Source: a virus. From it: a DNA stretch of 64,000 nt. A program made the translations under genes and the position numbers. Position 1 is the stretch's first letter, and each line of letters opens with the position of its first letter. Where the stretch lies: IMG/VR virus record IMGVR_UViG_3300009494_000372; one strand, written 5' to 3'. Under the pieces are notes generated by a model that did no database searches, had not been told where the DNA came from, and saw nothing but the letters and a program-made list of their open reading frames with translations. This document shows, one piece after another, positions 11,936 through 64,000 of this stretch.

Positions 11936-13120
11936 ATGTCAACAGATTTTCCCCACCGTTCGGATTATGATGTTTTACGCGAGTTCGTGATCGGCGTAGA
12001 GTGGAACCAGAACACAGACACCTGGAGACGGATCGATGAATATGGTACCACCATCGATTATTTCGATGTCAGGGCAACCAAGTTTTATTTCGACAACCAT
12101 CCGGTCTGGGGCAACATGCGAAGATGCACGCTTGCCGATGATGGCACCGTGAATAACTACGGCAGCACTCCTCGCGGTGACGGGCTGACCATGGACGGCA
12201 CGGACGGGCAGGTGATGGTCGAGATCCCGAAGTTCTGGATCAAAGCCGCGAATCCGTCAGCAAACGTTTACCAGCGGTGGATCTCGCCGGTCGCAAAGAC
12301 AGGTTTTGATGTTCATCCGTACTTCAGGCAGCGGGGCGGCGGTGCCGGGAGGGATTATGCCTACTTTGGTGCTTATGAGGCATTCAACGATGGCGGCGCA
12401 CCAAACAAGCTTGAGAGCAAGACCGGCGTTGCGCCTGCAGTGAGCACCACGATCGCCAATTTCAGGACCTATGCTCAAAATCGTAATGTTGGATTGGTGC
12501 AGCGATGGGGCATCACGAGCATCTGGGCACTGTCCGCGATCCAGTCACTGTTCTACATCGAATCCGGGGGTGTGGATTCGCAGTCGTTCGTCGGAATGGG
12601 GAATGTTAATACGGCGGCTAAACAGAACACAGGCGCGAATTCGATCGATACGTACATAGATGCGAATGGCACAGGCAAAGCGAAAGGGGCAAACAGTCAG
12701 GTAGGGATCGCGTACAGGGGCATCGAAAATCTGTGGGGTAACGTATATACTTTCATAGATGGTTACAATTGTCTTGCGAACAATTCAGCATACCGGCTCA
12801 TCAACCGTGAAGGTACAGGAACGTTCCAGGATGAGCTTCTTGCAACCTGCGAAGATTCCACCGCAGCGCCGATTGTGGTAGACGGTTACATCTCGAACAT
12901 CGAGTACGAAGACCTGCTGAAGTATTTGATGATACCAAGTGCCGTAACTGGCTCTTCGATAAGCGACTACTTTTACGCGCACGACACAGACGAACTGAAC
13001 ATCCTGTTGTCCGGCGGCGTTTGGACGCATGGCGGCATGGCGGGGGTCGCCTATCTCGGTTCGTATGACGTTGCGGCGTCTGTCGCTACGTCTCTCGGCG
13101 CGCGCCTTGAGTTTGTGTGA
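11936..13120 (+). CDS. DGR target protein (C-type-lectin-fold-like fibre tip) with C-terminal variable region
   Basis: VEIPKFW, FGAYEA and YRGIENLWGNV motifs; 3' end matches the TR. Confidence 0.88.
   Translation: MSTDFPHRSDYDVLREFVIGVEWNQNTDTWRRIDEYGTTIDYFDVRATKFYFDNHPVWGNMRRCTLADDGTVNNYGSTPRGDGLTMDGTDGQVMVEIPKFWIKAANPSANVYQRWISPVAKTGFDVHPYFRQRGGGAGRDYAYFGAYEAFNDGGAPNKLESKTGVAPAVSTTIANFRTYAQNRNVGLVQRWGITSIWALSAIQSLFYIESGGVDSQSFVGMGNVNTAAKQNTGANSIDTYIDANGTGKAKGANSQVGIAYRGIENLWGNVYTFIDGYNCLANNSAYRLINREGTGTFQDELLATCEDSTAAPIVVDGYISNIEYEDLLKYLMIPSAVTGSSISDYFYAHDTDELNILLSGGVWTHGGMAGVAYLGSYDVAASVATSLGARLEFV
13004..13111 (+). repeat. DGR variable repeat (VR)
   Basis: 108 nt; differs from TR at 26 positions, every one an A in TR. 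Confidence 0.95.
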
Positions 13121-13124
13121 AACC

Positions 13125-13418
13125 ATGAGTGAGTACCCGCGTTTCAGTGATTTTGCGGAAGAAGAAAACCCGTTAGAGGGTGAGAAAAAGAAGCTGGATG
13201 AAATAGTAAACATAGAAATATTAGTAACCGGGTTTAAAATTGGAAAGAGCAAATATAAGGACAAAGACTATCTAACACTGCAATTCGAGAATGGCGATGG
13301 TAAATGTATTGTATTTACCGGTTCGGGAGTGCTGATCAAGCAAACACAAAAATATGAAGATAGAATGCCGTTTTACACAACAATCAAGAAGGTCAATAAT
13401 TACTACACCATGACGTGA
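13125..13418 (+). CDS. Small DGR-associated accessory gene (97 aa), not obviously Avd
   Basis: Lies between VR and TR; pattern LTLQF..IVFTGSGVLIKQ..PFYTTIKK..YYTM looks beta-rich. Confidence 0.7.
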   Translation: MSEYPRFSDFAEEENPLEGEKKKLDEIVNIEILVTGFKIGKSKYKDKDYLTLQFENGDGKCIVFTGSGVLIKQTQKYEDRMPFYTTIKKVNNYYTMT

Positions 13419-13484
13419 AGGATTTTATGTGATGTCAGCTAACATGCATCCGGTTGAAATGTATAACAGTGTGCCTGGTTTTGC

Positions 13485-13592
13485 CTGTTATCCAGCAGCA
13501 ATTGGACGAATAGCGACAAAGCAGGAGTCGCCTATCTCAATTCGAATAACGTTGCGACGAATGTCAATACGAATATCGGCACGCACCTTGAG
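13485..13592 (+). ncRNA. DGR template repeat (TR)
   Basis: Non-coding, AAT/AAC-rich copy of VR just upstream of the RT. Confidence 0.95.
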
Positions 13593-13729
13593 CTCATGAC
13601 TATGGGCTTAGTCCTGAACAGCATTTCAACCTGCACCACAAACGGTCAAACACACAGCAAAATCCGGTAGATGGGTGTCAGTATCATCCGAGAAAGTTCT
13701 CATCTATCGGTAGGGCTTAACTCATTGAT

Positions 13730-14818
13730 ATGAAACGATATGGTAGTTTATTTCAGAAGATAGTTGATCCGGACAACATCAGATTAGCACATAAGAACGC
13801 GAAGAAGGGCAAAAGTCATTATTCCGAAGTGTTGGAGGTTGAAAGAAATCCTGAACAGCATATACGAGAGATCCAGGATATGCTGATTAATAAAACTTTT
13901 ACAACGGCAAAATACAGAACAAAGATCATACACGAACCAAAAACGAGAATCATATATAAACTTCCATACTTTCCGGATCGTATCATCCATCACGCTGTTA
14001 TGAATGTTATCCAGCATATCTGGGATAAAGTGTTCATTTATGACCTCTACTCCGCAATACCGGGCAAAGGATTGCATAAAGGAGTTTTAAAACTCAGACA
14101 TTTTATGAGGGATGATGAAAACACAAGATACTGCTTGAAATTTGACATCAGGAATTTTTATCCTTCTGTCAATCACGATGTTCTTATCGGGTTGGTCAAA
14201 CGAAAAATCAAGTGTAAGGACACATTATGGTTACTCGAAAACATCATCAGAAGTCCGGGAGGCGGTGAAAATATACCAATTGGTAATTATCTTTCTCAAT
14301 ATTTTGGTAACATCTATCTTAACTGGTTTGATCACTGGTTAAAAGAAGAAAAACAGATGAAATACTATATCCGCTATTGTGATGATGGTGTTATATTGCA
14401 TAAGAGCAAAGAAGTGTTAAACAATCTGCTTGAAGAGATTGAAATATATCTCGGGGAGAACTTACAGCTAAAACTCAATCCGAAAACACAGATATTCCCG
14501 GTGGATACCAGAGGAATAGACTTCCTGGGCTACCGGAGCTTCAGGGATTATACATTGTTGAGAAAAAGTTCGGCTACAAGATTCAAACGGAAAATAAGAT
14601 TTATTGAGCGGAACTATGTGAAATTGGAACCACAGTATATTATCAGCTCGGTTATGTCGTGTTGTGGCTGGATAAAATTTTGTGACGGTCACCATCTGCT
14701 AAGAATACACATATTAGAAAATGAAAGCATTCTTGAGATCATTGATGAATCGTCAAAGATATTGAATATCAATAATCCTTTACAAAACTTCACCGCATCG
14801 CCGGCTTCACGTACCTGA
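13730..14818 (+). CDS. DGR reverse transcriptase
   Basis: KFDIRNFY, IPIGNYLSQYFGNIYL, YYIRYCDD and IDFLGY motifs; adjacent TR/VR pair. Confidence 0.95.
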   Translation: MKRYGSLFQKIVDPDNIRLAHKNAKKGKSHYSEVLEVERNPEQHIREIQDMLINKTFTTAKYRTKIIHEPKTRIIYKLPYFPDRIIHHAVMNVIQHIWDKVFIYDLYSAIPGKGLHKGVLKLRHFMRDDENTRYCLKFDIRNFYPSVNHDVLIGLVKRKIKCKDTLWLLENIIRSPGGGENIPIGNYLSQYFGNIYLNWFDHWLKEEKQMKYYIRYCDDGVILHKSKEVLNNLLEEIEIYLGENLQLKLNPKTQIFPVDTRGIDFLGYRSFRDYTLLRKSSATRFKRKIRFIERNYVKLEPQYIISSVMSCCGWIKFCDGHHLLRIHILENESILEIIDESSKILNINNPLQNFTASPASRT

Positions 14819-17460: not shown

Positions 17461-17796
17461 CCTGCCAGCAAGCTTTTGCCTGCACAAACACTGGGGCGCC
17501 CATCCGGAATACCATCCCCTCAATCGCAAGCAAAAGGCTGATAGCAGGTCAGCTATCGACAATTCATGGGTTATACATGCCAACATGCAGAAAAACCGTT
17601 CGGGTTTGATCCGTTCGGCAAAAACAATGAGCCAAACATCTCAGAGATAAGATTATTCAGGTTATGGAGATGCCCGGAGTGCGGTCTGTGGTACTCGTTA
17701 ATATCATTTCAATCCCGAAACGGTCTGATTATAACACACCCGGGCATGAAACGGTAGTTGCATAACCATATAAGCTTTATTGAGGGCGCAAGTGAC

Positions 17797-18758: not shown

Positions 18759-18846
18759 ATCTTTGAACAGCATGATCTGGGAAGGTCAATCTGCAGTTCA
18801 AGCAGGTGTTATGCGTGGCGCATCAGTCCGGTGCGCCGCTCCGCAC
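18759..18846 (-). ncRNA. tRNA-derived structured element, copy 3
   Basis: GGCGCA/TGCGCC hairpin and CTGC-TTGAACT-GCAG loop; begins 1 nt after the TAG at 18848. Confidence 0.5.
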
Positions 18847-18981
18847 TCTATTTCTCTCTTCTGACGATGATGTGATCCGACGGGCAGCCATGTAGGTTTG
18901 AGACAAAGTGCCTGCAGGTCATGCAGTAGTCCTGCACACCAAGGTGGTCTTTCGCAAACGTCCTGGTCACCCAATCAGATC

Positions 18982-19427: not shown

Positions 19428-19453
19428 GCGCATTACCGCTCTGCCACCCGGGC
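19428..19453 (-). pseudogene. 5' fragment (acceptor strand plus D arm) of the 5329-5414 tRNA, with a homologous promoter
   Basis: 25/26 nt identical to 5389-5414; upstream GCAACTACC.TTTCAT motif shared; the sequence then diverges. Confidence 0.7.
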
Positions 19454-19494
19454 ATGAAATGGTAGTTGCGTAAGCATCCTTAAATGGTTTGGCA

Positions 19495-19582
19495 CCTTTT
19501 AACGGTATGATCTGGGGATCAACCTGCAATTCAGGTAGGAATCGTGCAGTGGCGCATCAGTCGGGTGCGCCGCTCTGCACCC
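19495..19582 (-). ncRNA. tRNA-derived structured element, copy 2
   Basis: GTGCAG..GGCGCA/TGCGCC..CTGCAC hairpin and CTGAATT loop; just after the TGA of 19591-19965. Confidence 0.5.
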
Positions 19583-19590
19583 AATACTCA

Positions 19591-22667: not shown

Positions 22668-23942
22668 ATGCCCAAAAGAAAAATAGTTAAGTCCGTGAAG
22701 TTCCATCTGCTTCCGATCACAGCCGCTAAACGCGAGCGGCTCGAACGGATTTCCGAGAACTTCAGAGAGATTTACAATGTTGCCGCGGCAAGGCTGCCAT
22801 CCCTGCAGGACACAAGCAAGTTCAAGTCCAGGAATGCGCTCAACCGGCTGCGGATCGAGCTGCACGACATCACTTATGTGAAATCACAGATCGCCCAGGA
22901 AGCGATCGAGTACGCCAGGGCAAACTATGAGGCGATGGCGACACGGAAAGAGAGCATCCGCGCAACGATAAAAGGTCTTGAGCAAGGTCTTGAGGACATC
23001 GGTGATAATCCAAAACGAAAGAGAACGAGGATGAAGCTGGAGCGCAAACTCCGCAGGAACCGGAGGGCGCTACGCACCAGATACCCGACACTCAGGCGTC
23101 ACATCATCAGGATCCACAACCAGTCATGGCGGTTCGATGTGCGGACCAATCGCATATATGTGGTCGTTCCAGGCGAGCGAGTTGGCAGGCGGTACAAGGA
23201 GATATGGCTGCCCCTGAAAGAGAGCGAACACTACAGGTATCTTGTGAACACAACACCAAAATGGGGCGTCGGACAGCTCGACCTGGCGACTGACACATTC
23301 ATCACGTCGATGACCACAACGATCGACGTTGCGGATTACACGCCCGACACGTTCATCGGCGTCGATGTCAGCGGAGAAAACCTCGCAACACTCGTCGTTG
23401 TCAAAGGCGGCAAGGTACTGCAGGTGCAGATGTGGAGCGGACACGAGATCGATCACGTAAGAGCACGTTTCCTTGACTACCGACGCCGGATGCAGAAGGC
23501 TGACAGACTCGATCTCGTGAAGCAGAGCCGGGGACGTGAACAACGATGGATGCATTACACCAACCACGTAACATCCCGCAGGATCGCTGAGATCGCGGTT
23601 AAATACAAGCACCCGTTCGTAGCATTCGAGGAACTGCGCATACCCGCAGACGGACTCAGGTGGAACTCATACCAGCTCAGGCAGATGTCAGAATATAAGA
23701 TCGCAGCACACGGCATCCGCAGCATCACGCTATACGCATCGCGCAAGATCAGGAGCGATACGATATGCAGCGAATGCGGACACAACGAAGCGAACAACCG
23801 GAACGGCGCAACATTCAAATGCCTGAAATGCGGATACAGCGTACATACCGGGGTCAACACAGCCAAGAACCTCGCTAAACGCAGTGAAGAAGTGCTTGCG
23901 AAGGCTGCGAAAAAGAAGAAAGCGAAAGAGGAGAAAGATTAA
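22668..23942 (+). CDS. CRISPR-adjacent Cas12f/TnpB-like effector, predicted nuclease-dead
   Basis: RuvC-I GVDVS, RuvC-II FEEL, CSEC..CLKC; RuvC-III reads HTGVNTAKNL instead of H.D.NAA.NI; 390 nt upstream of the array. Confidence 0.8.
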   Translation: MPKRKIVKSVKFHLLPITAAKRERLERISENFREIYNVAAARLPSLQDTSKFKSRNALNRLRIELHDITYVKSQIAQEAIEYARANYEAMATRKESIRATIKGLEQGLEDIGDNPKRKRTRMKLERKLRRNRRALRTRYPTLRRHIIRIHNQSWRFDVRTNRIYVVVPGERVGRRYKEIWLPLKESEHYRYLVNTTPKWGVGQLDLATDTFITSMTTTIDVADYTPDTFIGVDVSGENLATLVVVKGGKVLQVQMWSGHEIDHVRARFLDYRRRMQKADRLDLVKQSRGREQRWMHYTNHVTSRRIAEIAVKYKHPFVAFEELRIPADGLRWNSYQLRQMSEYKIAAHGIRSITLYASRKIRSDTICSECGHNEANNRNGATFKCLKCGYSVHTGVNTAKNLAKRSEEVLAKAAKKKKAKEEKD

Positions 23943-24332
23943 TATAGGGGCGCATCATCACACTCTACCAATGGTGTCGCAGCTACATGATGCACGCCAG
24001 GGGTGGCGTTACACCGCCCGTGCGGCTGCCGTGCAGTCGCGAGATGCCAGCCTCAGATGACCAGTAATCGGAAGCCTATTGTTGAATCGTGGCTCAGGGC
24101 TGTGATGGGAAAAGATCGCGGTAAAGACGCGGCGCCGGAGAACAATCACTGAAACATACATCTGGTATGCAGACAGGAAAATCGATGGCAAGATTGGCAA
24201 CGCAGATGCCACCCTTCATCTCGCGCTGTGCGCGATTATAAGGGGATACATAACTTCGCGACAAGAAAAGCGACTGTGTGAGAGATACGGTCTACTTCGA
24301 TATTTTGCGCTGAAACGGGGTTTTCGGGTAGT
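23943..24332 (+). ncRNA. Candidate tracrRNA/leader region
   Basis: Non-coding; GTTACACCGC (24008-24017) and TTCGCGAC (24255-24262) are partly complementary to the repeat ends. Confidence 0.35.
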
Positions 24333-25473
24333 GTCGCGGGGCATGTTTCAGAGAGACATGCACTGTAACCTGGCGGCTCGTGAACAAGAGATCGTGCTTG
24401 AGGCTGGTCGCGGGGCATGTTTCAGAGAGACATGCACTGTAACCAGGGCGATGTGAGTCTATACGAACCGATCTATTGTCGCGGGGCATGTTTCAGAGAG
24501 ACATGCACTGTAACATCAGAAATCATCGATACCTGAAAAGCAGCAGGTAGAGGTCGCGGGGCATGTTTCAGAGGGACATGCACTGTAACTATAGTGCAAA
24601 GTTTGATTCCAAAACAGATTTGGATGGTGTCGCGGGGCATGTTTCAGAGAGACATGCACTGTAACGATTGAATGACCTATGCAGATGAAGCTCCCAAGGG
24701 TCGCGGGGCATGTTTCAGAGAGACATGCACTGTAACACAGGGCACACGGGTCAAACATAAGCGATACGCATTGTCGCGGGGCATGTTTCAGAGAGACATG
24801 CACTGTAACTTGTGACAAAATCGATTAGAATGTTATTTTAGCATAGTCGCGGGGCATGTTTCAGAGAGACATGCACTGTAACCTCTGCACTGCTTGCGGT
24901 TATGCGTTCCTCCAATCCGGGTCGCGGGGCATGTTTCAGAGAGACATGCGCTGTAACGAACGCCAGTGAGCTGTATATGGCTCCCGGGTGACGTCGCGGG
25001 GCATGTTTCAGAGAGACATGCACTGTAACTGCCTGCATATTCTGATTTGGTTGGATACATCGCCGAGTCGCGGGGCATGTTTCAGAGGGACATGCGCTGT
25101 AACGTTAAAGGCTATCGATAAAACAGCTCCTGCAACGTAATGTCGCGGGGCATGTTTCAGATAGACATGCGCTGTAACGGCGGAGTCATGATCAGGCGTT
25201 GATGATCATCCATCTCAAGTCGCTGGCATGTTTCAGAGGGACATGCACTGTAACTTCCCAGGTTTATTTCATGCATGGTTTTTCACATAGGGTCGCGGGG
25301 CATGTTTCAGAGAGACATGCGCTGTAACTATGCGATCACACAGAATTAAATGCAATTGGAATCTGGGTAGCGGGGCATGTTTCAGAGAGACATGCACTGT
25401 AACTCTACAATGATCTCATTACCCTTGTGACGTATAGTCGCGGGGCATGTTTCAGAGGGACATGCGATGTAAC
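24333..25473 (+). CRISPR. CRISPR array: 16 repeats of 37 nt (GTCGCGGGGCATGTTTCAGAGAGACATGCACTGTAAC), 15 spacers of 33-40 nt
   Basis: Repeats at 24333, 24407, 24478, 24553, 24629, 24700, 24773, 24846, 24921, 24993, 25067, 25142, 25219, 25292, 25367 and 25437; degeneracy increases rightwards; partial repeat at 25492-25503. Confidence 0.97.
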
Positions 25474-25892
25474 GATAACTTACAGATGGATATGCGCTGT
25501 AACCATGGGGACGGTATCTGGAATCCGGGTGGATTATTGGTGAAAATCGAGGAAGATTATGAACATAATGGATAATGGCAGGGTTGATGCGATATTAGGC
25601 AGGTTGCAAGAGCAACTCGATAAGGATCCCAAAGAGCTCGAGCTGGTGCTCGACATCATTGAGGAGGTAATCTAAGTGAAATTCACGCCACCACAGACCC
25701 TCAAGCCAGAGGATGTACCGGACGTTTTCGGTGGTGATGAATTCACCATCAACGTATCAAAGGTCAAAGACTCGTTCACGGATTTCCTGAACATGGCAGA
25801 GTTCCTGAAAACAACTACCCTGACCTGCAAGACATGCAGCGAATTCCCATGCCACCGCAGCCAGGATCCGGACCAGAAGATCGGGTTCTGCT

Positions 25893-28130: not shown

Positions 28131-28267
28131 TAACCTCCGGTTATCCCTCTTCAGCATCCAGCTTATCAAGATATTCCTCAAATAGTCTGTTTACGACCTC
28201 TGCAATGTTAACTTCCTTTGTTATTGCACGGTTGTACAGTTTGATTCTTATGTTTATCCCTGGCATA

Positions 28268-29236
28268 TTATTCCTCCAGTATTTTCTCAAGTAGTTCCAT
28301 CTTCCCATTATTCAGTTCCGGATGCTTTAGCCGGATCGCACGCAGCATATCCGTCGGATAGACATTCCTGTGATGCAGTTTCGCAAGCGTAATAGCAATC
28401 CGGATCATTGACTCCTCGTCCCGGATGCTGCCGGTGGATTCTGTCAACACCAGATACATCTCCATCAGCTTTACCATCACAACCCGGGTGCCGTCACTAA
28501 TGCCCGGTTCAAAGTCACTGATCCAGCGTAGATAGTTTCGCAGGTTTATGCCGTCGTATCCCTCTTTCGGTCGGTACCAGTTCATGACCCTTGAGCGCAT
28601 GATCTCACGCTTGAAGTCATGATCCGGTTTCAAGACCTCAAACTTGAAGTCAAACCGATCCATCAGTTCCGGAGCGAACTTTGACGTCTCGTTCGCACAC
28701 GCTATGCACCGAACCCTTGCATCAATCACCGTATGCGTCTTCCCGACATCGATATGTATCTTACCCTCTTCCAGAGCCTCCAGAAGTCCCTGAAGCGATT
28801 TCTGATCGAACTTGTCCAATTCATCGAGGCAACAGACACTATCGTTCGCTTTCGGCAATGCACCGAGTGTAATTTCGTTCCCGGACGCATCCGCCGTCAG
28901 ACCGACTCTCGATGACCTCATCGATGCACCAACCGCACCCTGCTTGAACACGAGCCAGTCCGTGATCATCGTCTTCGCCGTCCCTGGGTCTCCAAACATC
29001 AGGACATGAATCCTGCCGCGGTCCCCGTGCCGGTCGCCATGTGATGCGAGGGCGAGCACAACAGCACGCTTCACATCATCCATGCCCGTAATTTTGGGAT
29101 TGATCGATGGATACCAGTATTCGAGCATGTCCTCGGTCTCGCATAGTTCCTTGAACTCCTGTTCCAACCCGGCATCGATGCCGCCAAGTTCAGCCGCTTC
29201 GAGCGATTCTATAAAGCCATCACCTGTTTCTGACAT
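28268..29236 (-). CDS. mcm: MCM-family AAA+ helicase lacking the N-terminal domain
   Basis: GDPGTAKT Walker A, CLDELDK Walker B, IACAN sensor and LMDRFD arginine finger. Confidence 0.85.
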   Translation of the reverse strand: MSETGDGFIESLEAAELGGIDAGLEQEFKELCETEDMLEYWYPSINPKITGMDDVKRAVVLALASHGDRHGDRGRIHVLMFGDPGTAKTMITDWLVFKQGAVGASMRSSRVGLTADASGNEITLGALPKANDSVCCLDELDKFDQKSLQGLLEALEEGKIHIDVGKTHTVIDARVRCIACANETSKFAPELMDRFDFKFEVLKPDHDFKREIMRSRVMNWYRPKEGYDGINLRNYLRWISDFEPGISDGTRVVMVKLMEMYLVLTESTGSIRDEESMIRIAITLAKLHHRNVYPTDMLRAIRLKHPELNNGKMELLEKILEE

Positions 29237-29462
29237 ATCTGATCACCTTCCCTGTCGCGTAGTCTTATGTTTATAGTCATACCCTCCGGATTTTATATCT
29301 GATTGCGTAGCCTTTACAGAGTTAACAGTCATTTTGCCTGAAATGACATCTGCAAAACCGCATTCATGCACTACAGCCATCGCAAAATTACGGTCTTTAG
29401 CACCTAACGCTCTCCAAAACGCGTATGTGATACGCAGTCTCTTTATCCTACCGATCTGCATA

Positions 29463-29666
29463 TCAGATCACCTTCAGACTTTTGAGAACCAGCGCATAGA
29501 CTCCAGCCGCGAATGCCGACACTACACCTAAAGTAAGGCATGTCAACAGGCTGTTGGGGTCGTGCCGGTATATCGTTACTCCTGCGACGAATGATGCCAC
29601 GCTGTTGCATAGAATAAACGCGAGAAGAGCCCTATCCACAAATTTCCAGACCTGCATACCGATCAC
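29463..29666 (-). CDS. Small membrane protein
   Basis: Two hydrophobic segments. Confidence 0.4.
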   Translation of the reverse strand: MIGMQVWKFVDRALLAFILCNSVASFVAGVTIYRHDPNSLLTCLTLGVVSAFAAGVYALVLKSLKVI

Positions 29667-29899
29667 CTCATGTACGTCCGATCACCGAAACCATCATCCA
29701 TAACGTCGCGATTGATGGTCGTCGTTTGCACCTCTGCGATCTCGGCGTATTCAGTCCAATACTCCGGAAACGCCTCTTCGATGCGATCCCTGTTGAGCTG
29801 ATCAGCAATGCGCAATGCCTGACCGAGACACTGCACGAAATGACCGCCATACTGGATCATCGCTGCCGCAACCGCCTGCGCTTCATCATAGCTTGTCAT
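29663..29899 (-). CDS. Small protein, tandem paralog of 29896-30078
   Basis: GGHFVQCLGQAL..DRIEEAFPEYW vs GTIFVRCLGEAL..QRIKEAFPELW. Confidence 0.55.
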   Translation of the reverse strand: MTSYDEAQAVAAAMIQYGGHFVQCLGQALRIADQLNRDRIEEAFPEYWTEYAEIAEVQTTTINRDVMDDGFGDRTYMR

Positions 29900-30078
29900 G
29901 GCTCTGTCTCCATCGCTTTCCTCAGATTCACCTTCCAAAGTTCCGGAAACGCCTCTTTGATACGCTGCCTGTCATCATGATCAGCAACGTACAATGCCTC
30001 GCCCAAACAACGCACAAAAATAGTGCCACGCTCCGCCATCGTTTTCGCGACTAAATGCGCTTCTTCATATTCGTTCAT
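29896..30078 (-). CDS. Small protein, tandem paralog of 29663-29899
   Basis: Alignment given for 29663-29899. Confidence 0.55.
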   Translation of the reverse strand: MNEYEEAHLVAKTMAERGTIFVRCLGEALYVADHDDRQRIKEAFPELWKVNLRKAMETEP

Positions 30079-30746
30079 GCCTCAACCCTCATGTTCCGGA
30101 TTGATTCCAGCAGCTCGGCACCATCAGTCTTTTTGCCGCCTCCGGATGCAGCCTTCTGTAGCTCGTTGATCGCGAGTCGCATGTCACCATCGCAGCTCCG
30201 TGAAATATCCTCAATCTCGCCGTTCAGGTCAAGACCCTCGCATTCTGCGATGTACTCAAGTCGCTTCCGGATCGCATCAGAACCGATCTTCTCGAACTCC
30301 AGGACTACGCACCGGCTCCGGATCGGCTTGCTGAAGATGTCGTTGTTCGCCGAAAGGATGAACCGCGTCGAACCGCGTTCCTCCAGTGGCTTCCGGAGCA
30401 TGTTCTGCGCCTGCGTTGTGAGTCCATCGGATTCATCCAGGAAGATGATCTTCACTTTCGTGAACATCGGCTGGTGTGCCGTACTTTTGATCACGTCCCG
30501 GATCGTATCGACACCTCTCTCATTCGATGCGTTGTACTCTGTGAAGTTCGTCTCAAAGAACTCTTTGAGCAATTCCTTCCCGATTATGTACGCGACGGTC
30601 GTCTTCCCGGTGCCCGGCTCTCCGATCATCCTGATGTTCGGGATGTCATGGTCTCGCTCGATCATGCCCTTTACCGTGGTCACGATCTCATCCTGACCGA
30701 CCACATCATCAAAAGCCTGCGGTCTATACTTTTCAGTCCACATCAT
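30075..30746 (-). CDS. rfcS: Replication factor C small subunit-like clamp loader (short)
   Basis: WTEKYRP, GEPGTGKTT, YNASNERG, FLDESD, IRSRC and GDMRLAINELQ. Confidence 0.9.
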   Translation of the reverse strand: MMWTEKYRPQAFDDVVGQDEIVTTVKGMIERDHDIPNIRMIGEPGTGKTTVAYIIGKELLKEFFETNFTEYNASNERGVDTIRDVIKSTAHQPMFTKVKIIFLDESDGLTTQAQNMLRKPLEERGSTRFILSANNDIFSKPIRSRCVVLEFEKIGSDAIRKRLEYIAECEGLDLNGEIEDISRSCDGDMRLAINELQKAASGGGKKTDGAELLESIRNMRVEA

Positions 30747-31182
30747 GCTCTTTCACCACCATCGTTGCTTGTAACGCTTCGATGAATCGCTCAACATCTT
30801 CTTTTGTGTAGAATCCAACGTGTGCAGTGACGCCTTCAACAACGTCATTCACTATCAAGTAAGGCATACGAACCCCTACCTGTTCTGCTACCTTGATAGA
30901 TCCACCATAGCATGTATTGATTTCTATCATCGCCTCACGCCTCCGTTTGCCTCACTCCTAACGCATCACTCATCGCCTCAAGTTCACGCATCAGTTCACG
31001 AAATTCAGGGTTGAATCGCTCTGCCTTGCCACCCTTCAGCCATGACTCAATCCGCCCCTTATGGTTCTTAACAGCCCATAGCACATACTCCATCTCTGCA
31101 AGGTATGTCTTGATGCTGTAACAATCCTTCTGCCGCACCTGCTCGGCTTTAAAGACGCGTTCAATGGTAGGCATCAGTGTCT

Positions 31183-31866
31183 TCATGGTTCTTTCGCCTC
31201 CGATTTATCGAGGTTTTCACCAACCCATGTCAAAAAATCGCCGCCGTGGATGTGTAATTTCCAATAATCGTACCATTTTGACAACGATCTTGTTTCGTTC
31301 AGGCTCTTGCTGTGATACAGTCTACCAGCGAACTCCGCACAACTTTGTATCTCCTCGTCGGTGGGGAGTCTGCCCTTCGTGTGCATCGTTATTTCACGCA
31401 GATGATCTTCGGACAACCAAAACCCCATACGTGCGAGTAGATCGACATCCCGTGTCTTTATCGTGTGTTGTTCCGGATTGTCCTGATACTGTATCAGTGT
31501 CCTGTTAAACTCGTCAGTGTAGAGCCATGCGAGACTGTGCCCCTCATCACTGTCCAGCGCAGCCAAACACTGGATGAACAGCAGTCGTTCAAGCAGATCA
31601 TCCTTAAAATAGTCGATAACCCGCTCATAGAACTTAATGAGTGCCTCTCGCCTCACAGACATGTCATGCAGTGTCTGTATCGTGCGTTGTTCAGGGATAG
31701 TCCCTCCGGTCTCGGCTGCGGCTGTGATATATCGCCTCGCGTTCACCAGTGCAATATGCACCGCCGATAATTCCGGCACATCCACCAGTATGGCAATATC
31801 ATCTGTGAGTAGCTTCCCAATGTTATCAAGGTCAACAAAGACCCCTTCTACACTTCCTCCTACCAT
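31183..31866 (-). CDS. Hypothetical protein
   Basis: 227-aa ORF in the minus-strand early-gene array. Confidence 0.5.
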   Translation of the reverse strand: MVGGSVEGVFVDLDNIGKLLTDDIAILVDVPELSAVHIALVNARRYITAAAETGGTIPEQRTIQTLHDMSVRREALIKFYERVIDYFKDDLLERLLFIQCLAALDSDEGHSLAWLYTDEFNRTLIQYQDNPEQHTIKTRDVDLLARMGFWLSEDHLREITMHTKGRLPTDEEIQSCAEFAGRLYHSKSLNETRSLSKWYDYWKLHIHGGDFLTWVGENLDKSEAKEP

Positions 31867-32107
31867 AGTTACTCACCTGCCTCCACAAACTCCTTTTTCA
31901 AACCCTGCATCCACCGTTCGGCAGAGGTCGCCTGCTCTCCCTGCGCCTCCACAACCTTCTGGTACTCCGTGATTGCGCCATCAAACGCGTCCCTTATCTC
32001 AACCTCAGTTAGATGATTTGCCTTAAGCATGTCCTGAAGGAATGTCGCCTCCAGGGATGTTGCCTCACGGGATACCCGCTCAACGTATGTGACCTCATCT
32101 CCTGTTG

Positions 32108-32566
32108 TCATGCTCCTTTCACCGCCTCCCGGATCGCTGTCTCCATGATCTCCTGCCATCCCTCAAGACCTGCCGCAACCATCTTTTTCACGCGGTCCAT
32201 CTGCTCATCAGTGAGTGGCTCCTCCAGTTCCATGCTGTGTGCCATGATCTGTGCGTCCTCCTCGGTCAATGCGAAGAGTGTTGCATCATAGCTCGCTCGG
32301 TCAAGGTTCATGCACGTCCAGTACTTGAATGGGGTGCCGTCCGCCATCTCGTGCCAGAACTGTCGCCATTCCTCCAGGGGTCGCGTCACGCTGAGTCCCC
32401 GGTGACGATATAACACGCTCTTATATTCCGCGTACCATCCGGCATTCCGTGATGCCGCGTCAAATGCATCGAGGCATTCTTTCCCGCCGACGTAATGACC
32501 CGCGTTGATCATCGCGTCCTCGAATGCAGATTGAAGTTCCGTCCTGTGCTTGTTTGTGTCTTCCAT
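32108..32566 (-). CDS. Hypothetical protein
   Basis: 152-aa ORF, operonic. Confidence 0.5.
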   Translation of the reverse strand: MEDTNKHRTELQSAFEDAMINAGHYVGGKECLDAFDAASRNAGWYAEYKSVLYRHRGLSVTRPLEEWRQFWHEMADGTPFKYWTCMNLDRASYDATLFALTEEDAQIMAHSMELEEPLTDEQMDRVKKMVAAGLEGWQEIMETAIREAVKGA

Positions 32567-32610
32567 GTTCTCGCCTGCCTAAAGTTGTGATTGTAACCCT
32601 CCGGTTACAA

Positions 32611-32868
32611 TCAAACATTTACGATCTTGTGCCTGTGCCATCGCTTCACGTACTCGATGTAGTCTGCCGGATCATCCGACACATCCGCGTCCTCATAAGG
32701 TTTGAACGGATGAACCCTGCAAGGTTTCCGCTCCCATGAGAACTCATAAGTTCCGTCGCGGTGCTCATGTACCTTCCAAAGTCGAAATACATGATACAAC
32801 CCGCTCGGTTTTAGAATGATCTTAACCAGTTCCTGAAAACTGTCGTACACAAACACGGGATCGCTCAT
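32611..32868 (-). CDS. Small protein paralogous to the C-terminus of 33673-34437
   Basis: KPYEDADV.DDPA...VKRW..HKI motif shared. Confidence 0.55.
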   Translation of the reverse strand: MSDPVFVYDSFQELVKIILKPSGLYHVFRLWKVHEHRDGTYEFSWERKPCRVHPFKPYEDADVSDDPADYIEYVKRWHRHKIVNV

Positions 32869-36809: not shown

Positions 36810-36828
36810 AATAATAAAGGTTGGGTGA

Positions 36829-52133: not shown

Positions 52134-52257
52134 GGTGGTATCTATGGTACCGCCGCCTCAAAAACGTTTTGTACGACAAACGCGGACATCCCCTTATAAA
52201 CCCGATTCCCAAATGAATAACAACTGACATTTAACAGCAACGGAGGTGAAAAAGACT

Positions 52258-52446
52258 ATGGCAGACCAGGCATCAGCAAAGAAGGTTTACAGGTTCAAGG
52301 TGTGCGAAGAGTACCTTAAACTGAAGGGTAAAGATGCAGCCGGATGCGACAAGGCATTCGACAACCTGATCACGAACATGACAGCGGGATACAGGGCACT
52401 TGCACCAGGAGAACGCATCGGCATCGGGGCACCATATTGGGTTTGA
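52258..52446 (+). CDS. Micro-protein copy 1 (62 aa)
   Basis: MADQASAKKVYRFKVCEEYLKL..; own TATA box and RBS. Confidence 0.7.
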   Translation: MADQASAKKVYRFKVCEEYLKLKGKDAAGCDKAFDNLITNMTAGYRALAPGERIGIGAPYWV

Positions 52447-52540
52447 GGTTTTTGCCCGACAAACGCGGACACACCTTTATAAACCCGATTCCCAAAGGGA
52501 TAATAACTGACATTAAACAGCAACGGAGGTGAAAAAGACC

Positions 52541-52690
52541 ATGGCAGACCAGGCATCAGCAAAGAAGGTTTACAGGTTCAAGGTGTGTGAAGAGTACCTT
52601 AAACTGACGGGCAAAGAGGCAGACGGATGCGACAAGGCATTCGACAGACTGATCACCAACATGACGGCGGGATACAAGGCACTTGCGTAG
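52541..52690 (+). CDS. Micro-protein copy 2 (49 aa)
   Basis: Same start motif; stop TAG. Confidence 0.7.
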   Translation: MADQASAKKVYRFKVCEEYLKLTGKEADGCDKAFDRLITNMTAGYKALA

Positions 52691-52808
52691 GCAAGACCTT
52701 TTCTCCCGGTTTCTTCTTTTTGTCCGACAAACGCGGACACACCTTTATAAACCCGATTCCTAAAGGGATAATAACTGACATTAAACAGCAACGGAGGTGA
52801 AAAAGACC

Positions 52809-52958
52809 ATGGCAGACCAGGCATCAGCAAAGAAGGTTTACAGGTTCAAGGTGTGTGAAGAGTACCTTAAACTGACGGGCAAAGAGGCAGACGGATGCGA
52901 CAAGGCATTCGACAGACTGATCACGAACATGACAGCGGGATACAAGGCACTTGCGTAA
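52809..52958 (+). CDS. Micro-protein copy 3 (49 aa)
   Basis: Same protein as copy 2 with synonymous changes; stop TAA. Confidence 0.7.
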   Translation: MADQASAKKVYRFKVCEEYLKLTGKEADGCDKAFDRLITNMTAGYKALA

Positions 52959-53070
52959 GCAAGACCTTTTTCCCATTTCTTCTTTTTTCCATTTACGAAA
53001 AAGTATATCGTCAGCCATACCTCCAGCCCGAAGGGTAGTTTTTACTCGATTTTTTGTGAAAAAATCGTTT

Positions 53071-60345: not shown

Positions 60346-60638
60346 GGTCTGATCTTCGGCGGACCGTCCGGGTAGTACTCGGCGTACACCTTCGGAACGA
60401 GCATTTTCGCGGTCGGGAATCCCATGTGCGACATGACCCGCCGTATCAGGTTATCTATCTCGTGGTTCCCCCATTCCGGGTGTTCTCCTTTGCGAAACTT
60501 GCACAGAGCCTCGATGAACAGCCGTGCCTCGTGCAACTCAGCCGGTATGAGAATATCTTTACTTGGTATGTGAATATCTTTCGTGACTTCCTCCCCGCTC
60601 TGAAGGAGCGAGGCTTCCGCTTCATAGAGGTTGCTCAT
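60336..60638 (-). CDS. Small protein, paralog of 62802-62999
   Basis: EID...R.MSH.G.P.AK..VP..YA..YP.GPPK shared. Confidence 0.55.
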   Translation of the reverse strand: MSNLYEAEASLLQSGEEVTKDIHIPSKDILIPAELHEARLFIEALCKFRKGEHPEWGNHEIDNLIRRVMSHMGFPTAKMLVPKVYAEYYPDGPPKIRPWR

Positions 60639-61747
60639 GCAACCGTCTCCGCTGGCTTAAAATCCCCACAGTCCGTGGGTATATATCTATTCTCGATGTT
60701 GATTGCGGCGTTGTGATCCCTGCCAATCGTGTTGCCGCACGCAGAGCACTCGTATGTCCTCTGCGATAGTGGCATCGGCTGGATATTGCCGCAAACACAA
60801 CATTCCTGACTTGTGCGTCTCGGATTAACCAGTCCAACGACACCACCAGCGTATTCTGCTTTGTAGGTCGTAAAATTGATTAACATTCCCCAAGAAGCAT
60901 CGTGAATTGATCTTGCAAGATGATGGTTCTGCACCATGTTTTTGATCTGCAAGTCCTCAAATACAATTTGATCGTAAGTATCCGCAAGTATCCGGCTCGC
61001 TTTGTGCATGTAGTCATTCCGGACGTTCCTGATCTTCCGGTGGATTCGGGCAACCTTCAGTTTCTGTTTCTTCCAGTTGTTCGAGCCCTTCTGCTTACGC
61101 GATAAGTCTTTCTGCGCTTTCCTTAGCTTTGAGTCGTACTTATCGAGGGGCTTGGGATTCTCGATCTCCGTACCATCGGATAAGGTCGCAAGCGTAGTAA
61201 TTCCAACATCCACACCAACAGAGGTTAGAATCTCCTTTGGCTCCGGATCCGGCAGTTCCACGCTGAAGGATGCATACCACTGATCTGCATCCCGCTTGAT
61301 CGTGCAGGTCTTGACATTCCCTTCGATCTCTCGATTCAGGAAGATTCTTATCGCCCCGATCTTCGAGAGATGAAGTTTACCATCTTCGATCTTATATCCG
61401 GTTCCGTAAGGGTCTGGATACGTGAATGAGTCGTAGCGATCCCTACCCTGAAACCGCGGGTATCCCGGCTTATTCCCATTCTTAACACGTCTGAAAAAGT
61501 TTTTGAAAGAGGTATCTACGCGGCGTAGAACGTTCTGAAGGATGTGGGCGTACACCCCGTGGTAGTCTGTATACTTTAGCCATCTCACCTGATCGTAATA
61601 CGATAACCCACAATGACAGTCCTCATAAGCTATTTTGCGGTCGTGTAATGAGTCGTTGTACAATTTCCGGCACACAGAGAGCACATACAGTAATAATATG
61701 TTTTGCTTTCGGGTGGGGTATATCCGGTATTTAAACGTCTTACGCAT
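60635..61747 (-). CDS. tnpB: IS200/IS605-family TnpB, RuvC intact; no tnpA
   Basis: MRKTFKYRIYP, GVDVG, VFEDL, TSQECC and GRDHNAAIN. Confidence 0.92.
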   Translation of the reverse strand: MRKTFKYRIYPTRKQNILLLYVLSVCRKLYNDSLHDRKIAYEDCHCGLSYYDQVRWLKYTDYHGVYAHILQNVLRRVDTSFKNFFRRVKNGNKPGYPRFQGRDRYDSFTYPDPYGTGYKIEDGKLHLSKIGAIRIFLNREIEGNVKTCTIKRDADQWYASFSVELPDPEPKEILTSVGVDVGITTLATLSDGTEIENPKPLDKYDSKLRKAQKDLSRKQKGSNNWKKQKLKVARIHRKIRNVRNDYMHKASRILADTYDQIVFEDLQIKNMVQNHHLARSIHDASWGMLINFTTYKAEYAGGVVGLVNPRRTSQECCVCGNIQPMPLSQRTYECSACGNTIGRDHNAAINIENRYIPTDCGDFKPAETVA

Positions 61748-61908
61748 GTTACCGATAAACTCTTTAACCAGAGTGTATATATGGTTTGTGCTTGCTCGCG
61801 GCGATGCGTTTTTTGCGCATGTTACCAACGCCGCTGGCAAGCAAAACGTTTTTACGCCTTCTTTTTGTGTGTACATGATTACCCATCCCTATTATTTACA
61901 ACTTTAAA

Positions 61909-62805
61909 CTACATAATAATCGCTATCGCTGACGCACCCCCGTAGACAAATGCTGCATACATACCGCTCTTCCACATCTTGAAGCTGTGTTGGGCGTGGT
62001 ACACGAGCATGGCGAAAAGGACGGCAGTGCATACGCAGGCGATGACGGTCGGTCCGAACACCGGCAGACCGCAGCTCTCATCACCAACCGTGAGCAGCGC
62101 GATACCAAGTACGGGATACAGAATTCCAACAGCGGTTGCGTTGATCGGACCCATGTAGACCGGCGTTGTGTTCTTCCCTGCTTCCTTGTCAGCCTCATAA
62201 TCGATCATGGACTGGAACAGGAACCATGCCGCACTGAACAGCCCGAACGATGCGCCCATGAACAGCCCGAGCAGTGTTACCTGCGACACAAGGATGTACT
62301 GCACGCCAGCCACGGCGACGATTGTTGATGGCAGTAGCATCGTGAGTTCAGGGAACGGGTGGTATGCGAGTTTGAGCGGGGGGAGGTTGTACTGCAGTGA
62401 CATGATTAACCCGAACATGGTAAATGCCAGTACAATGATCCCGGTTTCAATAGCCAGCCACCACGTAAATAATGCGAACATGACAAGGCATAATATATAA
62501 AGACAGATCACGTCCCGATGCGTCAGTTCGCCAAGAAGAAGGGTATGGTACATGCGGGATTTGCGGCTGCCCTGCTCCATTGCACGCTTATCCACATCGA
62601 TATCGATGAGGTTGTTCAGGATGTTCGACTTGAACAACAGGCACAAAATCACACCAGCTCCGGGAATCATGTTCCACCATGCAATCGGCTTGCCTGTCGC
62701 AACTGCGCAGGCTATGCCGAGCATCATGACCGGGACCACGAAGGCTACCGTGATCTCGATGCGTGCGGATTTGTAGATTCCGGCGAGTTTGGTTTTTGCT
62801 GTCAC
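61909..62805 (-). CDS. UbiA-family prenyltransferase (MenA-like)
   Basis: NNLIDIDVD and SMIDYEADKEAGKNTT; multiple TM segments. Confidence 0.85.
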   Translation of the reverse strand: MTAKTKLAGIYKSARIEITVAFVVPVMMLGIACAVATGKPIAWWNMIPGAGVILCLLFKSNILNNLIDIDVDKRAMEQGSRKSRMYHTLLLGELTHRDVICLYILCLVMFALFTWWLAIETGIIVLAFTMFGLIMSLQYNLPPLKLAYHPFPELTMLLPSTIVAVAGVQYILVSQVTLLGLFMGASFGLFSAAWFLFQSMIDYEADKEAGKNTTPVYMGPINATAVGILYPVLGIALLTVGDESCGLPVFGPTVIACVCTAVLFAMLVYHAQHSFKMWKSGMYAAFVYGGASAIAIIM

Positions 62806-62999
62806 TTAACACCGTAATCAGCAGTTACTTTCGGCGGTCCTTCCGGATAGCAAACCGCGTATGCCTCCGGAACGATCCGCTTTGCGTCAGGCAGACCGAC
62901 ATGCGACATAATGTTGCGCATCATCTTATCGATCTCTCCTTCGCTCCATGTGTGCTTGTCGAGGTTCTCACGCAGCATCATCTGACCCTCGATGACCAT
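62802..62999 (-). CDS. Small protein, paralog of 60336-60638
   Basis: Motif given for 60336-60638. Confidence 0.55.
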   Translation of the reverse strand: MVIEGQMMLRENLDKHTWSEGEIDKMMRNIMSHVGLPDAKRIVPEAYAVCYPEGPPKVTADYGVK

Positions 63000-63088
63000 C
63001 CGGCATTCATAGTCCCTTGCGCAAGGAGACCCCGCTACTTGTAGCGGGGAGGAATTGCGCCTCCATAAAGCTTATATAGTTGCGTGAC

Positions 63089-64000
63089 ATGGTTCTCGTT
63101 GGTGAGACCTTGAAGACTGTATTGATCAACTGTTTGCCATTAACCAGCAAGAAACAGCAGATACGCGATAGTTTCTTTAAAGAATATCTCCGCGTTCTGA
63201 ATGTCACGCTTAAATCATTACCTGATGCCAAATCTTCAAACGATTTGCACCACCTAACATATTCCAACATTCGCGAAACCTCCTTTTTGCCTTCTGATAT
63301 TGTTCAAGAAGCCCGGAAGGATGTCTGGGCTAAACGTAAGACTGTTAAGAACGGATTTAAACGGTGTTCTATCCGGCTTAACAAGAGATGGTTCAGGTTT
63401 TTTACCACTGATCGGGCGACTCCATGTTTTAAGGTCACCTACGCTCCGTACAAGACCTTTACTATCCCTATAGCACTTGACGGGGGTTATGATCGATTTA
63501 ATCAGTTCCTTGACGATGGTTGGGCTATTAAAACCATTTCCCTTCTCGATAGTAAAATTGCGGTCTCCATCGACAAAGATTTCAACGCTCCTGATAACAT
63601 CAGCAGGTACGTTGTCGGTGTTGATGTTGGTTCGACCACTCTCGCCGCGGTAACTGTCTTTGACACCCTCAAAAACCGTGTTGTCAAACAGCTTTACTTG
63701 GGTAGAGATGTTGCCATCAGGCAACGCAGAGTTGCGGATCGACGTGCTTTGCTCCGGAGCAAGGCTGACAAAGGGTCTGATCAAGCGAAGAAGAGTCTTA
63801 AACGGCTTGCTAACAAACAATTCAACTTTGTCAAGACCCGCAGCGGTCAAATTGCTAAAGAAATCGTGGAACTTGCGGTTGAATACCATGCAACCGTCGC
63901 CATCGAGAAACTTACTATCCGGGGCAGGAAACACCAATTTAACAGGTCTGCTAACCGGAAGATAAACACGATTCCATACGCACAGCTCAGAGACTTTCTT
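63089..64000 (+). CDS. tnpB: TnpB/Cas12f-like protein, truncated by the window end (absent from the ORF track)
   Basis: Open frame from ATG 63089: SDIVQEA, VVGVDVGSTT, VAIEKL and TIPYAQLRDFL; CTTATATA box upstream. Confidence 0.85.
   Translation, partial: MVLVGETLKTVLINCLPLTSKKQQIRDSFFKEYLRVLNVTLKSLPDAKSSNDLHHLTYSNIRETSFLPSDIVQEARKDVWAKRKTVKNGFKRCSIRLNKRWFRFFTTDRATPCFKVTYAPYKTFTIPIALDGGYDRFNQFLDDGWAIKTISLLDSKIAVSIDKDFNAPDNISRYVVGVDVGSTTLAAVTVFDTLKNRVVKQLYLGRDVAIRQRRVADRRALLRSKADKGSDQAKKSLKRLANKQFNFVKTRSGQIAKEIVELAVEYHATVAIEKLTIRGRKHQFNRSANRKINTIPYAQLRDFL

Follow-up and report, generated by a model that had tools for sequence, protein, structure and literature searches.

The 64,000-nt stretch of IMG/VR record IMGVR_UViG_3300009494_000372 (the window, in whose positions all coordinates are given; the source contig measures 84.8 kb) holds two guide-array systems and a diversity-generating retroelement (DGR). 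One system is a Cas12f-like protein beside an array of short palindromic repeats, clustered and regularly interspaced (CRISPR), the other a TasA-type Tas protein beside an array of TIGR type (for tandem interspaced guide RNA). It is well supported by their sequences that neither array effector has a working DNA nuclease. On balance, the stretch looks like part of one large mosaic mobile element that would replicate with a mini-MCM protein, and whose two array effectors would bind DNA without cutting it. The modules seem to travel together in a family of such elements.

Each of these modules is of a described kind. What is new is their rare co-occurrence on one element family, plus a series of Cas12f-like proteins that runs from intact to dead. 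Literature on the virome and the hotspots of anaerobic methanotrophic archaea (ANME-1) mentions none of these modules. A first-pass annotation, made from the letters alone, had listed the DGR, a dead-Cas12 CRISPR system and TIGR-TasA. Domain matches, adenine-only differences between the DGR repeats, and the arrays themselves show that all three are real. It had also called them three independent RNA-templated systems. The systems are present, but only the DGR is RNA-templated; CRISPR and TIGR are RNA-guided.

The source is probably an archaeon, an uncultured microbe of marine seeps. An archaeal host is suggested by a mini-MCM that resembles those of archaeal tailed viruses, by an RFC-like ATPase and by TATA-like boxes visible in the sequence. 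Relatives of the window were found in marine-sediment and cold-seep runs from four studies. The DGR and the Cas12f-like CRISPR system, which comes without adaptation genes, would sit on a conserved backbone of some 33 kb (about 11.9-44.8 kb). The main features are these; related loci and Logan contigs go by L numbers.

11936-13120, plus strand: DGR target gene, tail-protein-like (phrog_5302 tail protein, E 1e-56; orthologue with 84% amino acid identity in locus L084)
13003-13111, plus strand: variable repeat (VR) of the DGR, from the alignment with its template
13125-13418, plus strand: 97-aa open reading frame (ORF) between target gene and template, at the site where a DGR accessory gene would lie (gene calls from two independent assemblies)
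13484-13592, plus strand: template repeat (TR) of the DGR
13730-14818, plus strand: DGR reverse transcriptase (RVT_1, E 4e-20; YCDD and IGxxxSQ motifs)
22668-23942, plus strand: Cas12f-like effector, 424 aa, with D-E-G in place of the RuvC D-E-D (TNB domain; profile search of PDB; alignment and tree)
23943-24332, plus strand: gene for a non-coding RNA, conserved and structured, about 390 nt long, in the gap between effector and array, preceded by a TTAATATA box
24333-25510, plus strand: CRISPR array, 16 good 37-nt repeats and one degenerate end repeat, spacers of 33-39 nt
44575-44820, no strand assigned: conserved non-coding stretch at the right backbone edge, just before the TIGR array (alignment of three loci)
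44936-46640, minus strand: dual-repeat TIGR array, 46 full 36-nt units (edge repeat in common with ZHAN22-2 scaffold_73)
46608-47573, minus strand: Tas protein, TasA type, Nop-only, 321 aa (PDB 9mty, a TasR, at E 1e-21; TasH; Foldseek)

The Cas12f-like effector and its array

The sole Pfam match of the effector is Cas12f1-like_TNB (PF07282). When the profile of its family is searched against PDB, Cas12f structures come out best, with E-values from 1e-25 to 1e-28 (8hr5, 8j12, 7wju, 9nzq). The family has 34 members among 5.8 billion clustered proteins.

Two of the three RuvC carboxylates, the RuvC-I aspartate (D233) and the RuvC-II glutamate (E321), are invariant in the family alignment. The third is not. 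RuvC-III of the window effector reads HTGVN, where relatives have HADVN. All 14 proteins that are at least 67% identical to the window effector carry HTGVN or HASVN, the serine being found in two clade members. The 12 more distant members that reach the motif have HADVN, HADLN or similar.

The 14 altered proteins are monophyletic (support 100/100) and nested among RuvC-intact relatives, which suggests that the third RuvC carboxylate was lost a single time. Within this clade dN/dS is 0.12-0.26. This indicates purifying selection, and with it proteins that are maintained and not decaying. The clade would then have lost the residue once and been kept under selection ever since. It is established for Cas12 and TnpB enzymes that DNA is no longer cleaved once the third RuvC carboxylate is gone.

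It is still worth asking if the protein might cut after all. Another acidic residue could step in, the site could be rearranged, or the nuclease could serve RNA or CRISPR RNA processing only; the system would then be an ordinary cutting type V. The invariant RuvC-I aspartate and RuvC-II glutamate would fit this, and altered RuvC sites that possibly keep activity are discussed in PMC10691335. However, glycine or serine is fixed throughout the clade, the motif HTGVNTAKN offers no nearby aspartate or glutamate as a substitute, and the sister clades retain HADVNAAINIA. A retained nuclease is for these reasons quite improbable.

The RNA gene downstream of the effector is 80% identical by column over four loci. 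Of its 96 predicted pairs, 14 have compensatory changes, a count that comes from only 4 sequences. At 24146-24157 there is an 11 of 12 match to the repeat, as an anti-repeat would have. By its sequence and predicted folding, this RNA is probably a scaffold like a trans-activating CRISPR RNA, plus leader.

Arrays with homologous repeats are present in the window, L084, L086, L087/L088, L090-L092, L096 and L100. An array adjoins every dead-clade gene whose downstream DNA was examined (those of L084, L086, L087/L088 and the window); in this clade it lies downstream of the gene and has 7-26 repeats. The nearest RuvC-intact relatives of the effector are CRISPR-associated orthologues with 56% identity, on sibling elements. 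The loci of RuvC-intact relatives (L090 at 9400-9975, L091, L092, L096 and L100) have the same scaffold RNA gene with mini-arrays of 2-4 repeats, which lie upstream and on the opposite strand. These mini-arrays were detected through the scaffold-RNA alignment and a looser repeat pattern. Their presence makes the whole effector family CRISPR-associated.

Relatives with effectors that are 73-87% identical have no spacers in common, which means that the CRISPR arrays turn over. No cas1, cas2 or cas4 was seen near the locus, in the precomputed Pfam matches of neighbouring genes and in scans of 15 window ORFs from 11.9-36 kb.

Some loci have features of their own. In L090 and L091, the gene directly downstream of the RuvC-intact effector is a homologue of the window gene that spacer 1 matches (see below). 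Locus L087 (5969-9396), and also L088, has a gene for a papain-like protease between two blocks, of 8 and 13 repeats, of one CRISPR array. At 17704-17730 the window has a single copy of a CRISPR repeat, which in L095 forms an array with a 66-nt period (10515-10869). L095 also carries a RuvC-intact effector relative. The repeat at 17704-17730 may be a solitary one of host type, and as such a lead to the host.

The locus has much in common with type V-F (Cas12f): a small effector with a split RuvC and a zinc-ribbon TNB domain, a long structured RNA beside the array, and 37-nt repeats. It differs by its clade-wide change from aspartate to glycine or serine in RuvC-III, and by being carried on a mini-MCM element from seep sediments. 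Nuclease-altered Cas12f branches and the binding-only Cas12m have been described already (PMC10691335).

The system probably works in the mode of type V-M (Cas12m) and of the type IV CRISPR systems of plasmids, which is element-borne silencing by binding instead of cutting, aimed at other mobile elements. Such silencing is treated in the discussion of PMC12045711 and in PMC10691335. The effector is itself no Cas12m, however: it is Cas12f-like and much smaller, and its match to Cas12m is weak. With TldR and the dCas12f-sigma factor systems it shares descent from TnpB or Cas12f and probably the retention of nuclease-dead proteins as RNA-guided DNA binders. Those systems are found beside regulatory partners and rely on one fixed guide, or on a few omega-RNA units, whereas here there is a long array with turnover, and no sigma-factor partner was seen. 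TldR, with a single omega-RNA guide and no array, was considered as an identity for the effector and is ruled out by the array of 16-17 repeats.

The TIGR array and its Tas protein

Read in the sense of Tas, the TIGR array has the edge repeat TGCGAGCCA, a loop repeat like TGAACCACA, and spacers of 9 nt. The loop repeat ends on CA, not CCA, in register, if box D (TG) and box C (CCA) are defined as in PMC12045711. The array starts within the last codons of tas.

Residues 53-171 and 237-281 of Tas align to 142-261 and 269-313 of the TasR chain in 9mty (by phmmer). Ahead of the Nop domain there are 52 residues in Tas, against about 140, including RuvC, in TasR. From these offsets it follows that Tas is without the N-terminal RuvC region of TasR. 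An alpha/beta subdomain of some 60-65 aa is inserted at roughly residues 172-236. The AlphaFold model of Tas has a pLDDT of 76 and a pTM of 0.72. A Foldseek search of PDB with this model returns TasR and TasH as the top 11 matches (E 3e-9 to 8e-6), and then IS621.

None of the 31 Tas family members has a RuvC or HNH nuclease domain, and the window Tas matches no nuclease family, in scans in which its inserted subdomain of about 60-65 aa was not searched separately. Two residues, Y273 and H280, are invariant in 22 sequences. They are in the loop 265-284 after the last Nop helix, and fit the Y/H dyad with which dual-repeat Tas proteins process pre-tigRNA. The first-pass annotation had described both guide-array effectors as lacking an obvious working nuclease. 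This has held up: RuvC-III has lost its aspartate to glycine or serine in 14 of 14 clade members, and Tas is Nop-only.

ZHAN22-2 scaffold_73 has a TIGR array of 69-70 units with the same edge repeat. Only 3 of the 46 window units recur there, so this array turns over as well. The Tas clade of the window was not found in 185,579 species genomes.

Known TIGR-TasA systems (Faure et al. 2025; Xu et al. 2026 preprint) likewise have 36-nt units with an edge repeat TG...CCA, a loop repeat and two 9-nt spacers. They also have a Nop-only protein with the Y/H dyad, a fold like TasR and TasH, and an array that starts inside the last tas codons. Their arrays, however, typically count 5-15 units, against 46 here and 69-70 in the relative. 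The Nop domain here also contains the alpha/beta insert, and the element that hosts the system has CRISPR and a DGR besides. In reporter assays, TasA acts as an RNA-guided transcriptional repressor (2026 preprint 10.64898/2026.09.09.750476).

One Tas subclade (P0054-P0063, for example L107 at 10001-11071) has an N-terminal AbrB/SpoVT-like extension of about 50 aa (PF04014 matches P0062), a DNA-binding part fused to a Tas without nuclease. The conserved stretch of about 250 nt at 44575-44820 is kept in scaffold_73 and in an NCBI contig that has no TIGR array, and contigs from another run end at 44575 and 44663. It may be the leader of the array or a site marking the edge of the element.

The diversity-generating retroelement

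Out of 109 positions, 26 are not the same in VR and TR. The TR has an adenine at each of them (26 of its 34), and 22 of the 26 are at codon positions 1 or 2. The VR ends 9 nt upstream of the stop codon of the target gene, and the reverse transcriptase starts 138 nt downstream of the TR. The phrog_5302 tail protein often adjoins a reverse transcriptase (30 of 80 relatives). Going by this layout, the DGR looks complete and textbook, and would rewrite the C-terminus of a tail-fibre-like protein. The 97-aa ORF at 13125-13418 has no Pfam or family matches.

Judged by their descriptions, DGRs from archaeal viruses like ANMV-1 (Paul et al. 2015, PMC4372165) are alike. They have the adenine-specific VR/TR pattern, a tail-fibre-like target with a C-terminal VR, and a setting in marine subsurface methane seeps. 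Unlike there, no virion genes were found near the DGR of the window.

Just 5' of the DGR target, an 838-aa ORF contains a 156-nt repeat (52 codons) in 6.8 tandem copies, at 10171-11222. An independent Logan contig ends inside this tandem repeat.

One element or neighbours

Three assemblies carry the case for linkage. From another sample comes the NCBI contig JAYELH010000043.1 (26.5 kb), which runs collinear to 11.9-44.8 kb; its nucleotide identity is 66-92%, and 75-88% in most segments. It has the DGR, the effector (87% amino acid identity), the array, the mini-MCM module, the spacer-1-matched gene and a CxxCxxCC protein. ZHAN22-2 scaffold_73 (ENA, cold seep, 87 kb) matches 39.5-58.7 kb collinearly, with nucleotide identities of 78-94% and two gene-sized indels. 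It has the backbone arm, the TIGR array, Tas (88%), tRNA-Met, the protease and the isoprenoid genes. In the more distant LASO19-1 scaffold_137, a Tas (48%) with a TIGR-like repeat region and a dead effector (73%) are 11.4 kb apart, among small element-type genes.

Counted over loci, DGR and dead effector are found together in two, TIGR and backbone arm in two, and Tas and dead effector in two. All three modules are together only in the window. These comparisons suggest that TIGR-TasA, at the backbone's right edge, is accessory and variable, and that tRNA-Met, protease and isoprenoid genes travel with it in the second assembly.

A metagenome assembly with insertion sequences and arrays in it is prone to breaks and misjoins, and 5.05-11.1 kb and 58.7-60.9 kb are without independent support. 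A chimera of unrelated elements is nevertheless hardly credible. Between them, independent Logan contigs, the NCBI contig and the ENA scaffold (other samples) overlap so as to span 11.1-58.7 kb with the order unchanged. Logan contigs from the run that best covers the window span 33.6-45.4 kb with zero differences, and read depth in that run is even, at 21-26, over 30-50 kb. Composition is uniform across the contig (G+C of the window about 50%; correlation of tetranucleotide signatures between flanks and core 0.77-0.89). Together, the collinear assemblies, the depth and the composition make chimerism very unlikely for 11-59 kb. The first-pass annotation had named a chimeric contig as one way to be wrong, and for this part that has not been borne out.

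Logan contigs also extend both ends of the window, with L112 running from -7775 to 3755 and L083 from 60935 to 67134. The ends of the contig are not reached by these. L112 adds NeuB, a radical-SAM protein and two MptE-like proteins, a nonulosonic-acid glycan cluster that continues 7.8 kb past the left edge of the window. L083 adds an ATPase of Mrp/NUBPL type. This gene past the window end falls in a Pfam family named ParA; being of the Mrp/NUBPL type, it was dropped as evidence for a plasmid.

Quite a few observations weigh against a single mobile element of an archaeon, as do the empty guide searches reported further on. In JAYELH010000043.1, homology breaks off near 44.82 kb in favour of PAS and response-regulator genes. 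This is exactly the place at which the window and scaffold_73 have the start of their TIGR arrays. That contig has no TIGR-Tas, so TIGR-Tas and everything to its right could lie outside the backbone. It was also binned to Chloroflexota, which conflicts with an archaeal host; binning of mobile elements is unreliable. No element ends, att sites, integrase or circular junction were found in the window and its Logan extensions. A 612-aa protein by the tRNAs has a weak integrase match (PHROG, E 3e-5) and nothing in Pfam or PDB. Some 40 unknown proteins were scanned against PHROG, Pfam and NCBIfam, and neither a capsid, portal or terminase protein nor a confirmed integrase came up among them. The flanks contain cell-like genes: the glycan cluster of at least 13 kb, a polyprenyl synthase, UbiA, the Mrp-type ATPase and four tRNAs. 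Lastly, internal mosaicism is suggested by a tRNA 5' fragment that is copied at 17.7 and 19.4 kb, and by the variability of 18.3-22.5 kb.

These observations can be read another way. The window may be a variable region of a host chromosome, with a provirus or plasmid-like backbone (about 11.9-44.8 kb) integrated in it. TIGR-TasA, tRNA-Met, protease, isoprenoid genes and glycan cluster would then be host genes or separate islands. The end of homology at 44.82 kb, with PAS and response-regulator genes beyond it, and the cell-like flanks with their tRNAs would be as expected. Even depth and shared composition are just as compatible with an integrated element. We regard this as possible, if doubtful. 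Tas and a dead effector are after all only 11 kb apart in scaffold_137, among small element-type genes, and the protease is found inside the CRISPR locus of L087. Nor are there att-like copies of tRNA-Leu, tRNA-Ala or tRNA-Met in the window, and no integrase is confirmed. Neither Tas nor the polyprenyl synthase has close relatives in the 185,579 species genomes. The nearest Atlas clusters of the NeuC-like epimerase from the glycan cluster are 80-87% viral, which is a lead only.

The combination is rare at any rate. Of 80 IMG/VR Tas loci, none has a DGR reverse transcriptase, a TnpB or Cas12 protein, or an MCM within 10 kb. Likewise, none of 80 viral DGR-target loci has a Tas or a window-type Cas12f-like protein within 10 kb. 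Searched one at a time, the Cas12-like protein, Tas and MCM retrieved no relatives from IMG/VR. A survey of co-occurrence had been proposed along with the first-pass annotation; it could be done, and what it returned was rarity.

The one mosaic element that we favour bears out in part what that annotation had proposed. The linkage in JAYELH010000043.1, scaffold_73 and scaffold_137 stands behind it, but TIGR is absent from one relative, no ends are in sight, and the TnpB insertion sequences are nested. Separate nested elements, which the annotation had held up as a possible refutation, do describe those insertion sequences. For Tas and the dead effector, which co-occur in scaffold_137, they are less likely.

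The TnpB genes

The first-pass annotation counted four TnpBs in 11936-64000. Four genes exist, but the one at 3813 is outside that range, and the one at 63089 is a divergent TnpB/Cas12-like gene.

3721-5045 (ORF 3660/3813-5033), plus strand: TnpB insertion of insertion-sequence (IS) type (Pfam HTH_OrfB_IS605, OrfB_IS605 and TNB; a Logan contig breaks at 3755)
26262/26355-27575, plus strand: second copy of this TnpB (91% amino acid identity to the copy at 3721-5045)
60635-61876, minus strand: a third TnpB of IS type, sharing about 31% identity with the first two (87% orthologue at a different site in scaffold_73)
63080/63089-64000, plus strand, running off the window: divergent TnpB/Cas12-like gene (419 aa in a Logan contig, ending at about 64348)

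All three IS-type proteins have the HTH, OrfB_IS605 and TNB domains and an intact D-E-D. The first sits inside the glycan-synthesis cluster, and the second, at 26262, is absent from the collinear JAYELH010000043.1. By their placement among relatives, these three are separate, polymorphic nested insertions, be the window one element or a chromosomal island. The fourth gene scores under the OrfB cut-off (27 against 30.5 bits) and is no sibling of the other three. No array was seen beside it.

It had been suggested that such in-house TnpBs served as raw material for the CRISPR effector, to be checked with a tree of the TnpB-like proteins. That idea found no support. The IS-type proteins match the effector over the TNB domain only, at 33% over 69 aa. 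The fourth gene, whose branch is very long, aligns to it over 330 aa with 22% identity. In the tree, very long branches likewise separate the IS-type TnpBs from the effector. Local identities of about 20-33% contrast with the nearest intact relatives of the effector, which are the CRISPR-associated orthologues.

The three IS-type genes are like TnpB-only insertion sequences of the IS200/IS605 type in their three domains, intact D-E-D, repeated copies and sites that vary between relatives. Unlike in IS200/IS605, no tnpA was seen here. The first insertion is beside a second, broken copy of a DegT aminotransferase gene: a 49-nt piece of that gene (3313-3361) is repeated at 92% identity at 5046-5094, on its far side.

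Guide targets and function

CRISPR spacer 1, the leader-proximal one, matches 39649-39685 at 32 of 37 positions. This target is in a 255-aa gene of the backbone (39496-40263, plus strand), which has orthologues in L093 (67%), L110 (74%) and L090/L091 (29-35%). In frame, the spacer encodes LAAREQEIVLEA, and the gene of the element itself encodes LSSREQGIVLEA. With a different allele encoded, the spacer looks as if taken from the allele of a sibling element. Four of the five mismatches are within the first seven spacer positions.

No other targets turned up. Of the CRISPR spacers of the window and its relatives (64 from four long arrays, 5 from two mini-arrays), spacer 1 alone has a target in some 250-300 kb of related DNA, and the CRISPR array has zero matches in the GenBank phage collection. 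A search with paired TIGR spacers, in both arrangements and with gaps of 0-2, gave 8 matches at 2 mismatches, against 1-6 for controls with shuffled partners, and none at 1 mismatch or fewer; this was judged to be no excess over the controls.

The first-pass annotation had proposed interference among related elements, and asked if CRISPR and TIGR guides hit the same competitors. The 32 of 37 match to a variant allele hints at such interference, but no second CRISPR target and no TIGR target joins it. Shared competitors did not materialise.

How might this work? Both effectors would load guides from their own arrays and bind matching DNA without cutting it. The bound protein would block transcription or replication, most likely that of sibling elements in the same host. 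Tentatively, a lineage in seep archaea may have switched to binding-only warfare, in which two unrelated programmable binders silence siblings without DNA damage, with guides still acquired in spite of having no adaptation genes of their own. Along the way, the array would have moved downstream of the effector gene and grown from 2-4 to 7-26 repeats, and some elements would have added a long TIGR-TasA array.

A more peaceful function can be imagined. Both systems could mainly regulate genes of the element or the host, such as for copy number, lysogeny or host takeover, as TldR and dCas12f-sigma do, and not be weapons. The sole spacer match is in a gene of the element itself, and a homologue of that gene adjoins the effector gene in RuvC-intact relatives. 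Nuclease-dead derivatives of TnpB and Cas12f are known as transcription regulators (PMC10705468, PMC12259090). Yet the self-match has 5 mismatches, bunched near the spacer start as noted, the allele looks like that of a sibling, and further self-targets did not turn up. An immunity-like use is also a better fit than fixed regulation for arrays that have 16-26 spacers or 46-70 units and turn over completely between close relatives. Regulation as the main function is therefore unlikely.

Other genes, tRNAs and repeats

28141-36134, minus strand: replication and modification module (Pfam; collinear in L084/L093 and L086)
28268-29236, minus strand: mini-MCM (Pfam)
30075-30746, minus strand: RFC-like AAA+ protein (Pfam)
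32960-33673, minus strand: N6 DNA methylase (Pfam)
36340-36810, no strand assigned: AT-rich stretch with A/T runs and a 114-nt repeat in two copies, between diverging gene blocks (similar ATTTTTTTTAAA repeats in L090/L091)
36827-37038: tRNA-Leu(TAG) on the minus strand and tRNA-Ala(GGC) on the plus strand (both absent from the collinear NCBI contig)
47704-47777, minus strand: tRNA-Met (same place in scaffold_73)
47786-49273, minus strand: papain-like protease with discoidin domain (Pfam; orthologues at 71% in L087, between the CRISPR blocks, and at 76% next to Tas in L110)

The AT-rich stretch at 36340-36810 is a candidate replication origin. The papain-like protease, going by its orthologues and their places, is a recurrent cargo of the element family.

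The window has four tRNA genes. The one at 5328-5414 measures 87 nt and has a GAA (Phe) anticodon according to ARAGORN; such a size calls for a long extra arm, an unusual feature in a tRNA-Phe. The initial 26 nt of this tRNA, the region upstream and a GGCGCA..TGCGCC hairpin form a block (5389-5590) that was copied at 78-91% identity. Copies are found at 17737-17769, 18817-18856 and 19428-19590, and in L084 at 6805-6842. Copies of the hairpin come right after the stop codons of minus-strand genes. The block copies could be old integration scars, or shared terminator or promoter cassettes.

At 52157-52970 there are three tandem units of about 268 nt (85-97% identical), each with a TTTATAAA box and a small ORF. 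A related stretch is present in scaffold_73.

What the series offers

Elements from seeps provide a natural series. It starts with nuclease-competent, CRISPR-associated Cas12f-like proteins with mini-arrays, continues with a dead sister clade that has long arrays with turnover, and ends with members that have TIGR-TasA in addition. On proteins of 321 and 424 aa, this makes the natural role of nuclease-less TasA and of dead type V effectors testable. The same goes for how arrays without adaptation genes of their own gain guides. The effectors could also serve as small programmable DNA binders.

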